64,000 nt of DNA from Eledone cirrhosa (lineage: Eukaryota): the NCBI GenBank assembly GCA_964016885.1, contig OZ024740.1, positions 283,526,001-283,590,000 on the forward strand, in the 5' to 3' direction. The position numbers and the translations under genes are program-made. The notes below the pieces were generated by a model, which saw nothing but the letters and a program-made list of their open reading frames with translations, was not told where the DNA came from and did not search any database. This document shows positions 20,691 through 64,000 of this stretch, in pieces (position 1 is the stretch's first letter; the number at the start of each line of letters is the position of its first letter).

Positions 20691-20830
20691 ATAGGAAAAT
20701 GTTTAACCCCGACGGCAGAGCTCTGCCGTCGGGGTTAAACATTTTCCTATTACCCACTCTACTACCCCAAGTATTGAGTAGTGTGGTGCGTTATGGTCCA
20801 TCTGGTTCCTTACCTCACTTCCGTCGTTAT
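20691..20830 (+). mobile_element. Family F7 short element with perfect 60-bp palindromic head
   Basis: 20691-20750 is a perfect palindrome; tail CCTATTACCCACTCTACTACCC..GGTGCGTTATGGTCCA shared with 38552, 59214, 60024 and 63830 copies. Confidence 0.85.
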
Positions 20831-20852
20831 ATATATATATATATATATATAT

Positions 20853-21618
20853 ATATGTTGAAAAGGTAACACACTAGAGAGAGATATACAGTGCGCTATC
20901 AATAAAACAGGGGAAAACCACCAGTGTATGGAATCTATAACCTATGAGAGGCAGACTATAGAAACGATAATTAAAAATATAAATTAAAGCGTAAACAAAT
21001 TCCTCTATAACTATATAACACACATACAAATCCAGAGAGATCTGTTTCGCAAGTAAGTTGTTGACAGAAATGGAATAACCTCGATTCCTCAGCGTGTGTA
21101 AGGCTATACATTTCAGACAACACTAAAAGAATTTTAAAAGTGACTGTCCAGCTACACGTGGGAGAGAGAAGTCACAGCGTGTTTAAGGGCAGTGAACCAG
21201 TGGCCTCTGAGGGACGAGCTGCTAGAAAGGGCAGCCCCAAAACCACTCAGAGAAGTGTGCTCAACCAAACAGAGAGATAGGAAAGACTGCTATAAGGAGC
21301 GAAATATCACGATAAATTAGCGGAGCCATAGACCCTTGCCATTCCCTGTAAATCATGTGCTCAAAGGAGAAGAAATCCTGAGCTCTTTAAAATACAATAT
21401 GTTGAAAAGGTAACACAATAGAGAGAGATATACAGTGCGCTATCAATAAAACAGGGAAAAACCACCAGTGTATGGAATCTATAACCTATGAAAGGCAGAC
21501 TATAGACACGATAATTAAGAATATAAATTAAAACGTGTGTTATATAGTTATTGAGGTATTTATTTACGCTTTAATTTATATTTTTAATTATCATGTCTAT
21601 AGTCTGCCTTTCATAGGA
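20853..21618 (-). mobile_element. Partial tandem (544-bp period) plus inverted segment, Penelope pLTR-like arrangement
   Basis: Direct repeats at about 20853-20992 and 21397-21535; 21535-21618 is an inverted copy of about 20941-21023; degenerate CTGAGGA..GAAACAGATCT on minus strand 21035-21092. Confidence 0.6.
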
Positions 21619-23835
21619 TTTAGCTTCAAGCATAGCTGTACGCAGATATGTATAGAAATTTCGTATTTCTAAATTATGTGATTTTGTAGGAACTTGGAGC
21701 TTTATGATGGTATCCGATTAGTCATAGCAGATTTATCTCGCATGCACCATCAATCTTCAACCTTTGTGGGAATACTTCTCTATCTGTCGTCATTGTAAAT
21801 CTGCTGATGCCCATTTTTCCCCTTTCTGGGAGTTTATACGTCCTTTTATTATTAGTCTATAGTAAAACTATATATATTATTAGACTGTAGTGAAAACTGC
21901 GGACATATTTCACCCTCAACTTTCTGATGACGGCACAAACCTGATACAGTTGTAAAAACATATTAATGTGACAGTGGTAGTGAAATGTAACACATTCTTG
22001 CGTCCAACGATATCAAAGCATTAATTTCACAACAAACTATATAGAACGACAATATGCATTAAAATATGTAGAACTTCAATGGAACTCTAAAACTACGAAC
22101 AAAGAAATGTCGATGTATTGAAACCAAAGGAATATTTGTACAACATTCCTGTAACATTTCCTCAAACACAGACACAAAAGAACACATACTGTTATACTGT
22201 TCTATATGACCGAAAACAAATACAAACAAATACTTTTGTTTGTATCAGTTAATGTTGAATTTTCAGTTGTTGTTACTTTCATATAATAACTTTAAATTCG
22301 TATACAAAACCAATGGTGCATTTGGCTACATAAACAAATATTTGTGCAGCAACCTTGAAAATAACGTTGCTGCTCAAAGAAGAAAGAAATTTCAGAAACT
22401 GTTTAATGGTATTGTAGGGGCCCGATAAGGATGTGTAAAAATACTTCCATAATTCATCACTTCCCTTAAATATACTGTTTTCTCAATATTAGTAATAGAA
22501 AAAATTATCTCTTCAGTAAAGACCAACTAATGTTTCCACTTGATTGAACTCAACTAAATAGAAGATTTATTTATATGTCTGCAATCTCTGACAATTAATA
22601 TGAATAACAATAAGTCTGCAAAAAAAAAATGAATAAACACACTTCCGAAGCATTTGAAAAACTTCACCTATTAAAGAAATGGTAGGATTTCACATATGTA
22701 ATATAGTGAATATATATATATATATATTTGTATATGTGTATGTATGTACGAACGTACGTATGTATGTATATATGTATATATATATGTATGTATGTTCAGG
22801 AATCGATATGCCGCATTCAGACAATGGGACGGTTCAGTGAACAGAGAGAAAACGTCCGAATGTTGATATTAGATATGGCTCCGTCATGTCTTTCTTGCAC
22901 TGGGTCATCGAGTTCATTTCACACGGAACTTAGTTATTAACGAAATTTATTCTAATTCATATGGAATTGTGTCTTTCTCCTAGCTATTGTAATAGATATT
23001 AAATAGACAAATTTGTTGATGGGAGTGAGGTTGTGTCACTTTTGTATCAATTGGACCGGCGCCACTTGTCTCAGATGGTGAGAAGTCACAATTCGACTGA
23101 ATAATTATGGAGTTACTCTTTACATTACAAGTAAGACGGCGTTATTGTACGACTCTGTTCTCTTCTGAAAAACATCGACAGCAAACGTTCCTACACATAA
23201 TATTCGATGCAACCCTTGTACACACAGATGTTCACGCACACATACACACACATTCGCACGGACACATACAGATATATATTGTATATATATATATGTATAT
23301 ATATATATATATATATATATATATACTTGTGTATATACATGTATACATATATATATGTTTATATATATATATTTATATATATATATATATATAGACATAT
23401 GTATATATAGACATATGTATATATATATATATACATATGTGTGTATATATATATATATATATATATATATATATATATATATACAGAGAGAGCGAGAGAG
23501 AGAGAGAGAAATATTTGCATGTTTATTCCTGGGTATTGGGTGTATTTTGTGTGAGGTTCACACGTCGTATTTGCCCTTTATTCACAAACCCTTCAAAAAA
23601 TCAAGTAATTTATTTTTTGCCAATCTGAAAAAATAATATATCTATATCTATTTATATATATATATATATATATATATATATATATATATATATATATATA
23701 TATATATATATATATATATATATATATATATATATATATATATATATATATACATATACATATATATATATGTATATATATATATATATATATATATATA
23801 TATATATATATATATATATATATATATATATATAT

Positions 23836-24010
23836 AGTAATAATAATAAAATTGAAGACTAAAATCCAAAGAGGGCTCGATAAGGAAAATATATATCAAA
23901 TATATAAGAACCGAAGAGCAAATATTTATTAAAATAACAGATTAAAGTTTAAGCAAAGAATCGCTGCTTTCACCCTTAACGGGATCTTAAGATCTGTTAT
24001 TTTAATAAAT
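23836..24010 (-). mobile_element. Short (TA)n-inserted element with fold-back end
   Basis: Shares about 90 bp with 48912-49001; TATTTATTAAAATAACAGAT/ATCTGTTATTTTAATAAATA inverted arms. Confidence 0.7.
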
Positions 24011-25145
24011 ATATATATATATATATATATTTATATATATATATATATATATATATATATATATATATATATATATATATATACATATATATATGTATGT
24101 ATATATATATATACACATTTCTTCATTACACTCTCATTTGCTGTGTTATTCCTGCTTACTTTTTCATATATGTATATATATATATATAGAGAGAGAGAGA
24201 TAGAGAGAGAGAGAGAGAGAGAGAGAGAGAGAGAGAGAAAGATAGATATATACATACATACATACATACATACATACATACATACATACATACATACATA
24301 CATACATACATACATACATACATATGTGTAGGTGGGTGGGTGACTGTGTGTGCATATAAGTGTGTATGTATGTATGTATGTATGTGTGGTTTAACAAATA
24401 AACTTGTTACAGAAACCATTGGTGGTCAGAAAAACAGTGAAGCATTAGTCAGACCATCAAACGTAACAACCAACAGAATTGGTTACTTTATGTAGACAGA
24501 AAAGCAAACACTACACATAATAAATATCAAGTAGACGAACGAAGATGCTGGGCTCTCTACGGTCGTTCAAACTGGTAGAAATAATGGATCTTCCGTCGGC
24601 CTCGACGATGAGCATTCAATCGTCCAGTTAACTGAACCTCCTTCTTAAATTAACATGTACGTGGCTAAGTACTCCGCATATACGTGTATCTTTAATATAA
24701 TTCCTCAGCTGAATTACCATGACAAGGCTCACTTTCTTCTGTGCATCAATATTCCTTGCTTTTTCCCTCCTTTTCCTCTCATTTATGGCATTTATCGTCC
24801 TTTCCTCTACTTTCTCATACAGCCAGATCTGCCCCTCTTTTCTCCCTCCCCTTTTTCTCATTACTTCATTTTGTTTTTATATTTCTATCATTGTATAACT
24901 TCTTTTTTATTTGTAATCTATATAACTGTCAATGATAAAAACCCCATTTATATCCATAATAAAAAGATTAATATTTTTTTTAACTGGCTAACTTTGAACT
25001 AGAAGTACAATCCATCCATTTCTTCCTACCCAATTCAACTCACAAAGCTTGGATTGAATAACAGTTTAGTCTCTCTCTAATCATACTGACTACAGTTTTT
25101 CATAGTCAGATCAACTTTGAGCATTCTCGTCGATGGAGATCTGGT

Positions 25146-62368: not shown

Positions 62369-63120
62369 TTACAAACGCCTTTATGTATAATCAATGTTGG
62401 TGAATGGATGAAAATATGTCCATAGATGATATATATACGAGTATATAGATATAGATATAAACACGTACAACACGTACAAACACATATAAAAGGTCATACA
62501 CTTGTATATATATATATATATATATATATATAAATTATATTTTCACTCTCCTCCACATTGACACACACAAAAACTCATACATATATATATATATATATAT
62601 ATATATATATATATATATATATATACACACACACACACACATATATATATATATATATATATATACATACATATAAATTATATTTTCACCCTCCCCTATA
62701 CAGACACACATATAAAAACTCATACATATGTACATGTATATAAATATAAAAATATAATTTATACCTATATATACATGTGTATGAGTTTTTATATGTGTGT
62801 CTGTATAGGGGAGGGTGAAAATATAATTTATATATATATATATATATATATATATATATATATATATATATATATGTCTGTGTGTGTGTGTGTATATATA
62901 TATATATATATATATATATATATGTGTATGAGTTTTTATGTGTCAGTGTGGAGGAGAGTGAAAATATAATTTATATATATATATATATACAAGTGTATGA
63001 CCTTTTATATGTGTGTGTATGTATGTACGTGTTTATATCTATATCTATATACTCGTACATATATCATCTATGGACATATTTTCATCCATTCACCAACATT
63101 ATACATAAAAACATTTGTAA
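62369..63120. repeat. About 750-bp imperfect inverted duplication, centre about 62750
   Basis: Unique blocks such as AATGTTGGTGAATGGATGAAAATATGTCCATAGATGAT recur reverse-complemented; embedded microsatellites differ in length. Confidence 0.9.
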
Positions 63121-63504
63121 TATATATATATATATATATATTATATATATATATTATATATATATATTATATATATATATTATATATATATTATATATAT
63201 ATATATTATATATATATATTATATATATATATATATATATTATATTTTCACCCTCCTCCACACTGACACACACAAATGACATTCGCAAATATATTTGTGT
63301 ACATGCCTGTATGTTGTTGAAATATGAAGCAACGCTGTCCAAGCTAAACCATACTGTAACAAACATGATTTCTGAAATATATCCACCCCTGACACTGCAT
63401 TTCGTGTTATTGTAAATCAGATTTGCCATACTTATTTATTTTGAGACGATACTCATTTTCTCCTGCAGTTTCTTACACTTACTACATTATATCTCCATAT
63501 CACC

Positions 63505-63790
63505 GTCGCGTGGCTTCGTGGCTACCGTTTTGAACTTACGACTGTAATGCTGTGGGTTCGATTCTTGGACTGGGTTGTGCGTTGTTTTTAACCAAAACAC
63601 TTTATTTCACGTTACTCCACTCAGGTAAAATTTATTACCAGCAATAATTAAGGGTTCACCAAGTGATGGACTGTTGGCCTGTACTGGGATGTGGATGGGG
63701 ATTTGGTGAGCCTAGCACTCTCAGTCGTTTAAGGCCAATGAAACCAGTATAAGTACCACCCCAATGAGCTTCTAGGCTCGGGAAGGAATT
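63505..63790 (+). mobile_element. Diverged SINE B with another tail
   Basis: GGTTCGATTC B-box and ACACTTTATTTCACGTTACTCC domain. Confidence 0.65.
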
Positions 63791-63829
63791 TAACAATTAA
63801 TATATATATATATATATATATGTATGTAT

Positions 63830-64000
63830 AAGAAAGGTGTGGTAAAATACCAAGCGGAACATAACCCACAAGAGTACTCGATGCTTGGCGTAGAAGAGTA
63901 GGTAATATGAAAATATTGAGGACCCCTACGGCTGAGCTCCGGCTGTTTCGACAGCTAGATCCGAACGTGTTCCGATCTAGCTGTCCTCAATCTTTTCATA
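63830..64000 (-). mobile_element. Diverged F7 element
   Basis: Minus strand GACAGCTAGATC..GATCTAGCTGTC-GAAA-CAGC..GCCG-TA^GGGGTCC, then the shared tail. Confidence 0.7.

Follow-up and report, generated by a model that had tools for sequence, protein, structure and literature searches.

We consider it probable that the short head-to-head copies (stubs) of the repeat family F7 in Eledone cirrhosa are products of two primings at fixed RNA sites: both cut DNA ends in (TA)n would prime reverse transcription separately, at positions 0 and −81 of the element RNA, both cDNAs would run off its 5′ end, likely capped, within hammerhead loop II, and the two cDNAs would then likely be end-joined head to head. 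Transcription would begin at the A of a T(C/T)AGT(C/T) initiator (−141), the extra G found at many ends would be a copied cap, both arms would derive from one RNA or one enzyme-RNA complex, and a minor RNA pool would be cut by the ribozyme at −100. The genomic sequence suggests a likely origin of each stub in two distinct rounds of copying, and not in a single copy that folded back on a ribozyme hairpin.

Element family and its parent

Judged by its sequence features, F7 derives from a Hydra-clade Penelope-like element (PLE), of which it is the end that carries the hammerhead, as the first-pass annotation had broadly proposed when it took F7 for a PLE end with a hammerhead and its inversions for the known inverted pLTRs. 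Positions are given as base distances from 0, the tail end of L113, a naturally occurring full unit that has a frameshift close to its start and was used unmended; the full unit is 3,320 bases long. The parent has a single ORF with RT and GIY-YIG endonuclease, which is what defines an EN+ PLE. Its motifs RLRWR, SDKTG, CNCPDGSI(C), CNLC and CKH, on which the proposed Hydra-clade placement rests, fit the diagnostics given in the available text of PMC8557442, namely DKT replacing DKG, a RWK-type motif, a CxCx5C linker, and CxxC and CxH around E and N. The RWR of the ORF is one residue off RWK. A Pfam scan of the ORF returned 0 families, and nearly all of its 145 homologues at E≤0.001 are without names. 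The (TA)n insertion of the clade is also found, with 20,512 exact tail ends running into TATATA genome-wide (the search pattern itself included TA), and the inverted arms adjoin TA runs as well, though sample selection ignored that feature. pLTRs from partial tandems, an inverted 5′-truncated copy and a tail at one end were all found (L113, L118 and L120).

The same source includes Hydra-1_Obim in the clade, and the likeness to F7 extends over the single ORF, RT with C-terminal endonuclease, RW(K/R), DKT, the CxCx5C linker, CxxC and CxH flanking E and N, (TA)n insertion, the one-end tail and the inverted 5′-truncated copy. The N-terminal region of the printed Hydra-1_Obim protein, as far as it is given, also resembles that of the F7 parent by eye. 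However, elements of the clade are described there as generally under 3 kb, the F7 hammerhead is non-canonical, with a U3-A8 or C3-A8 core and a long loop II, and Hydra-1_Obim is annotated "no pLTR" as against the clear pLTR and tandem copies of the F7 parent. By description, the F7 parent is a family distinct from Hydra-1_Obim, and within a clade already described it is an ordinary member. An identity as a non-LTR retrozyme was rejected, since the stubs are dispersed, head to head and carry only half a ribozyme, whereas such retrozymes are tandem repeats with a complete hammerhead per unit.

Copies in the window

The window is the whole stretch of 64,000 nucleotides that was analysed. The five related copies with a common tail reported earlier were recovered, and a sixth fragment, absent from that account, is added: a tailless stub at 59472..59513 on the forward strand (about −120 to −81), flanked by TA runs. 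Copy 1 (subfamily C) consists by sequence mapping of a tailless inverted arm on the reverse strand (20691..20720, −81 to about −110) and a forward tail arm (20721..20831) that begins in the palindromic loop of stem III and ends with the tail, 20718-20831 mapping to −113..0. As previously observed, 20691-20750 is a perfect palindrome (30+30 bases, 60 bp) centred at the loop of stem III. Three of the palindrome centres listed from the 400 with the best scores have more than two base types: this one and two TA-microsatellite runs. Short-read contigs from one study hold related stem III-centred palindromes, including a 60-base record across 20695-20754 with 3 differences, so this type of structure is not merely an assembly artefact; among the contig pieces listed, none covers the whole of the copy 1 stretch.

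Copy 2 has its tailless inverted arm at 38552..38605 (reverse strand, −81 to −134, mapped to L113) and its tail arm at 38602..38738 (forward strand, −134 to 0), with a 4-base AATT overlap at the junction. Copy 4 has its tailless inverted arm at 60021..60096 (reverse strand, −81 to −156, also mapped to L113) and its tail arm at 60096..60256 (forward strand, −160 to 0), and is among the minority that run past the putative RNA start. Both had been described as centred on stem II. The overlap of copy 2 (−134) lies at the top of the stem II 3′ strand only, and copy 4 joins at about 60096 (−156/−160), inside loop II and not on a stem. Also on the forward strand, copy 4 carries the initiator-like motif in hammerhead loop II at 60113..60118, with the putative capped start, placed from genomic ends, at 60115 (−141), and the 3′ half of the hammerhead at 60133..60175, comprising GAAA (60133-60136), stem III with its palindromic loop, and the stem I 3′ strand to 60175 (−81). 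Position 60175 is the fixed outer end of tailless arms, and the ribozyme cut is predicted between 60155 and 60156. The 81-base tail (60176..60256, forward strand) would lie between two reverse-transcription start sites; autonomous copies continue into the ORF 5′ region.

In copy 3 (subfamily B) the tailless inverted arm (59214..59275, reverse strand) ends one base short of the A of the subfamily B initiator-like motif, an unmatched A follows at 59276, and the forward tail arm (59277..59375) starts at −99, which is 1 base beyond where the ribozyme is predicted to cut; the microhomology join proposed here is not visible. The one proposed for copy 5 (subfamily B) has another location: its tail arm (63827..63966, reverse strand, running from the tail end and stopping 1 base before the putative start) and its tailless arm (63969..64000, forward strand, reaching the window edge) meet over a 2-base spacer (63967-63968), and the 3-base microhomology lies within the tailless arm, at an internal deletion that removed GAAA, stem III and the cut site and runs between two GTC triplets. 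The statement that all copies keep part of GAAA-CGGC..GCCG-UH needs amending for copy 1, which is without GAAA, and GACRGCT, formerly read as stem II, is what inversion makes of the stem II 3′ strand, its reverse complement. The first catalytic box is indeed missing from all window copies. Its loss had been ascribed to the inversion; it would instead follow from the position of the RNA start, upstream of which the box lies.

Arm geometry across the genome

Random sampling of 20 10-kb stretches gave only 12 matches at about 8 insertions, too few for use, and pattern-based sampling was used instead. The resulting unbiased sample has 97 insertions chosen by tail end alone (4 of 101 were dropped as duplicates from overlapping loci, and 3 of the first 100 listed tail matches were left out). 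Of these, 64 are two-armed, that is, composed of a tail arm and an inverted tailless arm, and the outer end of the inverted arm is at −81 in 58 of the 64. The junctions had been expected to be non-random and they are far from random: 99 of 128 inner ends fall within a 14-base loop II window (−134..−147). Of arms reaching −134, 55 of 62 tail arms and 51 of 54 inverted arms stop by −147. The reach is symmetric, the tail arm going further in 28 cases and the inverted arm in 23, with 13 equal. Genome-wide, junctions of the two-arm class number 11,645, and their types are short overlaps, blunt joins and inserts.

The earlier proposal was that the first cDNA folds back on the ribozyme stems, self-primes and yields the inverted arm, and self-priming is also proposed in the available text of PMC3846280, there on an antisense template. 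Such an origin would agree with the correlated length of the arms and with their common subfamily letters (both arms of one insertion are of one subfamily, with matches at the subfamily sites of 54/55, 53/56, 54/56 and 52/54), as well as with an end in stem III in 6 of 64 insertions, the perfect palindrome of copy 1 and the copy 5 deletion that spans stem III. But the inner ends outside loop II include only 7 in stem III and 9 in the stem II 3′ strand, and the stubs keep only one strand of stem II, the true 5′ strand being absent, so a stub cDNA cannot form the stem II hairpin. Fold-back should also nest the inverted arm within the first-strand arm with its centre at a hairpin, yet the inverted arm that goes further in the 23 cases does so by at least 6 bases in 14, and in 7 of 64 insertions it has no overlap with the tail arm. 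A tailless first strand cannot template the tail, the fixed stop at −81 is left unexplained, solitary tailless arms bear the extra G described below, and this G sits at the 5′ end of the sense strand, as expected with a sense template. Fold-back is therefore contradicted as a general mechanism, for which we regard it as very improbable, and may apply to the few stem III-centred copies; for these, two arms annealing via the palindromic loop would give the same product. It may be noted that the matching subfamily sites and the long arms in head-to-head pairs (34 of 98 rows, hand count) are equally predicted by fold-back. Also, deletions after insertion could shorten either palindrome arm.

An A versus G difference between the arms, seen in the 30 best matches to copy 4, was considered as a sign of two different templates and rejected: the unbiased sample is G/G in 47 of 48, and the difference is a selection artefact because the copy 4 query had its A at a CpG site. 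By eye, the sequence that follows −81 resembles the one that follows 0, and both fold into small hairpins, but 104 of 3,075 control windows score equally.

Untemplated G and the putative transcription start

An untemplated G precedes −141 (at −142) in 75 of 100 ends of both arm types (first 100 of 158 TA-joined ends, hand count), compared with 1 of 7 at −138 and, among the untemplated bases at −100, 4 of 37 (hand count; Fisher p 7e-12). Tailless arms with the extra G stand alone too, and 12 of 20 G-bearing ends fetched were tailless (11 of 19 after dropping one duplicated locus). In the available text of PMC11702581 an extra G marks the junctions of capped full-length L1. The presence of this cap-like G on tail arms and tailless arms alike speaks for a capped sense template primed twice independently, and the fixed stop together with the extra G likely marks the capped start of the element RNA. 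The A of the putative initiator T(C/T)AGT(C/T) is at −141, the consensus being that of Drosophila (PMC1779564), which may not be that of E. cirrhosa. Among the RNA runs searched, none was listed as containing the family, which counts neither for nor against the start. Subfamily B has a different loop II, and its stop is at a TTAGTT of its own: of 100 listed arms, about 72 end within a few bases of it and 28 continue (hand count). Also, 6 of 7 chimeras jump from −137..−144 onto ORF-internal ends, as expected at an RNA 5′ end, and the Penelope pLTR contains an internal promoter (PMC2377424). Tail arms extend to −142..−145 in 17 of 97 insertions; a second capped start at −145 was considered and rejected, there being no G excess (3 of 55).

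Two primings could also be combined with a −141 end at which copying is blocked or the RNA is processed and uncapped (through a bound protein, a weak U-rich hybrid, a splice acceptor or a nuclease cut), the enzyme itself producing the G by adding a terminal C. Upstream the sequence is rich in U and has AG dinucleotides, long copies read past −141 without stopping, and T-runs exceeding the template at some ends (10 of 55 rows) suggest terminal addition, all of which would suit such an end. We still judge it unlikely, as the G is rare at the presumed uncapped −100 end and at −138, and the stop follows one initiator-like motif in two different loop sequences. Its variant with a splice acceptor at the AG near −140 was rejected, since the ends are without a common upstream exon.

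Another source of the stubs could be short non-autonomous masters, that is, earlier transcribed stubs whose boundaries would be the ends seen, rather than fresh initiation at two sites of the parent RNA. In favour of this, 92 of 97 tail arms are ≤160 bases, the internal promoter could function within a stub, and animal retrozymes are described as non-autonomous PLE derivatives in the available text of bioRxiv 10.64898/2026.07.22.740005. However, junctions vary from copy to copy, meaning that the two-arm unit is not amplified whole, and stubs and long copies carry common subfamily letters. We give such masters very little weight as the origin of most stubs, and they would alter the RNA source, not the capped start or the twin priming. 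To return to two primings on capped RNA, the long copies (17 with ORF ≥1.4 kb, 16 of them with a called 5′ end) end at −134..−147 in 0 of 16 cases and beyond −160 in 13. Their template would thus have to be a different one (read-through, tandem or circular RNA), or they would need strand transfer.

Hammerhead structure

In 12 long copies, a small and related sample with a hand-drawn structure, stems I-III of a type I hammerhead around the core boxes have 90.2% of cells paired, and 4 pairs are altered on both sides, 3 of them in stem II (1 of 500 shuffles equally high). The 3-8 position is UA in 8, UG in 3 and other in 1. Full-length copies had been predicted to show CTGANGA before GACRGCT; this was not found, and the long-copy cores are TTGANAA (5,084 pattern matches) or CTGAGAA (1,634), which precede the true stem II strand. 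The hammerhead is thus a variant of canonical CUGANGA, with U3-A8 in the UUGANAA core and C3-A8 in the other subfamily, and the available text of PMC8557442 treats the canonical hammerhead as an observation on the Hydra clade, not as its diagnostic. An Rfam scan gave no hammerhead in the best 150 of 250 matches, mainly microsatellite noise, the hammerhead fold was not recovered when the monomer was folded freely by MFE, and the available portion of PMC6155905 has nothing on the 3-8 pair. Ends cluster at −100 in about 18 of 56 distinct loci (hand count), with an untemplated base at −101 in 37 of 50 rows and a single template jump from −100. The cluster may reflect self-cleavage after UH or arrest at stem III.

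Relation to known systems

How inverted ends form in PLEs, and whether sense or antisense RNA is copied, are left open in the available text of PMC3846280 and PMC8557442. The F7 family offers over ten thousand natural products that record the template 5′ end to the base, and its ends give exact coordinates of the putative RNA start. More tentatively, we suggest a wider scheme in which the capped start lies inside the element's own hammerhead loop II and reverse transcription on both target strands starts as close to the cap as 60 and 141 bases, mass-producing integrated "strong-stop"-like stubs. Full-length copies would then arise differently, by strand transfer to the 3′ pLTR or from a circle made by the ribozyme, the 5′ half-ribozyme could be cut only in trans by the downstream pLTR, and the inverted pLTRs of PLEs would result from twin priming on sense RNA. 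The literature searched, which did not reach most subscription papers, yielded no report of either a cap-derived G or twin priming in PLEs.

Twin-primed arms of L1 are not known to overlap, whereas F7 has a fixed second start (−81) and its two arms mostly cover one and the same stretch of 60 bases. The likeness to L1, as described in the available text of PMC11702581, lies in the second target end priming internally on the RNA, the extra G at capped 5′ junctions and the microhomology joins. Closer in kind is the anole PLE PAc (Frangieh et al. 2024, PMC11167929, available text), which in vitro cleaves and extends both strands from two internal start sites bounding the tail, at AT-rich targets, and inserts independently of ribozyme cutting. 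The tail is 81 bases in F7 as against the 30-40 described for Penelope, and the portion of that study available neither maps the RNA 5′ end nor explains inverted arms, both of which the F7 genome records. The Adineta vaga Penelope (Arkhipova et al. 2013, PMC3846280, available text) shares the head-to-head inverted pLTR, the tail on one arm, junction palindromes and an Inr-like pLTR motif; the palindromes are read there, with the matter left open, as antisense-template self-priming, while F7 favours two primings on capped sense RNA. Penelope-like families of an octopus are listed in PMC13282606, whose available text mentions neither hammerhead nor Hydra. The minimal PLE hammerheads, including the U3-A8 one of Schistosoma Cercyon (Cervera and de la Pena 2014, PMC4209133, available text), resemble that of F7 in being type I within the pLTR, with a palindromic stem III loop, G10.1-C11.1 and a U3-A8 core. 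F7 differs from them in a stem III of 4-5 bp, a C3-A8 mismatch in one subfamily and a loop II of about 33 bases that holds the putative transcription start.

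Parent element and ribozyme

All five F7 copies that the first-pass annotation had reported in the window with a common tail are present and its palindrome at 20691-20750 is exact; a sixth fragment was found at 59472-59513, and a decayed tail-like stretch (59385-59470) lies between it and the third copy (59214). The tail-end pattern is matched exactly at 20,512 sites in the 3.0-Gb genome and at 0 in the control. Walking upstream from the tail leads to a 3′ UTR and then to an ORF with RWR, SDKTG, YRDD, a CxCx5C linker, a C-terminal GIY-YIG-type region, CxxC and CxH. As sequence motifs, these match the Hydra-clade description in section 11 of PMC8557442, the supplement of which holds an octopus member of that clade inserted in (TA)n. 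A Pfam search of the ORF returned 0 families; there are 145 homologues, most of them unnamed. F7 is genuine and adds a new member to a known clade. Its host is probably a cephalopod. It may be noted that sampled locus L124 (2224-4551) holds ORF pieces of a different RT and GIY-YIG element, together with one direct copy and one inverted copy; this element is not the Hydra-type parent of F7. An open frame at L111:7645-8535, about 800 bases from a long parent copy, resembles the ectodomain of a receptor guanylyl cyclase or natriuretic-peptide receptor.

Positions are given on a natural full unit of 3,320 bases from locus L113, with negative numbers counted from the tail end (0). An abundant dispersed repeat, which we take to be SINE-like, has a 3′ part about 80% like the parent 3′ UTR at -766 to -720 (window 6347-6393, 16055-16099, 34970-35013, 46311-46357, 54034-54081 and 59160-59205, among others); either may have captured the other. 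Long copies hold stem I, a core box, a long-looped stem II, GAAA, stem III with a palindromic loop and a GUC cut triplet. On the L113 unit the first core box lies at -186, G10.1 at -179, the inferred start (the A of an initiator-like motif in loop II) at -141, GAAA at -123, the predicted cut between -101 and -100, and the end of the tailless arm at -81. The CTGANGA box expected before GACRGCT was not found, but long copies carry a variant box there, either TTGANAA with any base at N (5,084 pattern matches) or, in one subfamily, CTGAGAA (1,634). The latter makes a C3-A8 mismatch, which would be expected to impair hammerhead cutting. The TTGANAA type is the U3-A8 variant described in PMC4209133. 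In PMC11167929, single 3/8 mutants other than C3-A8 abolish cutting. In 12 long copies 90.2% of cells are paired, with 4 two-sided changes. The stubs of the C3-A8 subfamily nevertheless include some that begin at the predicted cut; cleavage in trans could account for these.

Where the arms end

Tail-end matches were taken in order along one chromosome, ignoring junctions, and the 101 rows less 4 duplicates gave 97 insertions. A short inverted arm was found in 64 of these, with its outer end at -81 in 58 of the 64. Among the 128 inner ends of these two-armed insertions, 99 fall in -134 to -147, and the rest in the stem II 3′ strand (9), stem III (7), the tail (7), GAAA (2) or beyond (4). Short tail arms end in the same interval in 55 of 92 cases (p 5e-30 against uniform), and junctions of this class number 11,645 genome-wide. 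Junctions are thus not random, but what attracts them is a site within loop II and not the stems; of stem II, the stubs have just one strand there. A minor peak of arm ends lies at the predicted cut site.

Each window copy maps on the unit as a tailless inverted arm from -81, a junction and a tail-bearing arm to 0, both outer ends adjoining a TA run. The junction is the stem III loop in copy 20691, an AATT overlap at -134 in 38552, loop II (-156/-160) in 60021, and the inferred start to -99 with one unmatched base between in 59214. In 63830, where stem III is internally deleted, it is the inferred start on both arms with a 2-base spacer. What had been read as stem II in these copies is the mirror image of its 3′ strand.

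The stop point

The loop II stop falls on the A of T(C/T)AGT(C/T), a motif similar to the Drosophila initiator TCAGTY (PMC1779564), though that consensus may not be the host's. Subfamily B, which has another loop sequence, was predicted to stop at such a motif, and its long copies have TTAGTT at that place. Where stop ends join the TA run via one non-T base, that base was G 75 times, A 18 times and C 7 times (hand count of the first 100 of 158), whereas the TA repeat predicts A. At control sites G was found in 1 of 7 such ends (-138) and in 4 of 37 untemplated bases (-100). An extra G marks capped RNA at L1 junctions (PMC11702581), and from the joining bases we infer that the F7 stop would be the capped 5′ end of sense RNA. 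Of 20 G-bearing ends, 12 belong to tailless arms and 8 to tail-bearing ones, so either arm type can be a primary RNA copy. Seven chimeras jump onto ORF-internal ends, 6 from -137 to -144 and 1 from -100. The head-to-tail cases (L216/L184 at G000:C1:27009400-27010200, L228, L236 and L245), in which an arm ends near -141 and continues at +104 to +833 within the ORF, are read as template jumps onto short transcripts.

Two primings or fold-back

The insertions are most simply read as products of two target-primed reactions on capped sense RNA that were then joined. Opposite ends of a cut TA run would each prime their own reaction, reverse transcription would start at 0 for the tail arm and at -81 for the tailless arm, and the two cDNA arms would then be joined; the anole PLE enzyme likewise starts at both ends of its own tail (PMC11167929). 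Junctions in the 64 insertions are overlaps (31), inserts (21) or blunt (12). The first-pass annotation instead had the cDNA fold back and self-prime on the ribozyme stems, an idea with precedent: in PMC3846280, self-priming on an antisense template was the explanation given for junction palindromes, though the matter was left open. If the tail arm folded back, the inverted arm would have to be nested in it. Yet reach is symmetric (tail arm further in 28, inverted arm in 23, equal in 13), the inverted arm is longer by at least 6 bases in 14 of 64, and the arms share no sequence in 7 of 64. Fold-back of the tailless arm could not produce the tail, and the cap-like G together with non-nested arms argues against self-priming on an antisense template. 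With the attractor in loop II as well, the fold-back mechanism is mostly wrong. At four subfamily sites the two arms of one insertion match far more often than random pairing would give, and the arms differ at 2.6% of positions. Both arms thus probably derive from a single RNA or complex, and the insertions are recent; agreement by itself cannot tell two primings from fold-back.

Against two primings on capped RNA, 0 of 16 long ORF-bearing copies whose 5′ end was called stop at the inferred start, and hence long copies depend on a different template or on a transfer step. Ends at -142 to -145 are not explained by a second cap and may reflect terminal A addition. An early argument for two different templates proved to be an artefact and has been dropped.

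The literature searched already describes inverted pLTRs, tails, TA targeting, internal promoters and U3-A8 cores; within it we found no report of a cap-like G or non-nested arms in Penelope-like elements. With the mechanism so corrected, an open question of Penelope biology can be tested at the single-base level.

Other inverted repeats in TA runs

A near-perfect long inverted repeat unrelated to F7 adjoins a TA run at window 37100-37320 and is possibly a stub with two arms from another family; 62686-62818 holds a similar hairpin. Beside F7 copies in L025 (reverse strand 230-430 and 1700-1990) and in the L191 flank there are further head-to-head inserts, flanked by TA and with GAAAC in their arms. 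They probably belong to other Penelope-like families whose stubs nest in those same TA runs.
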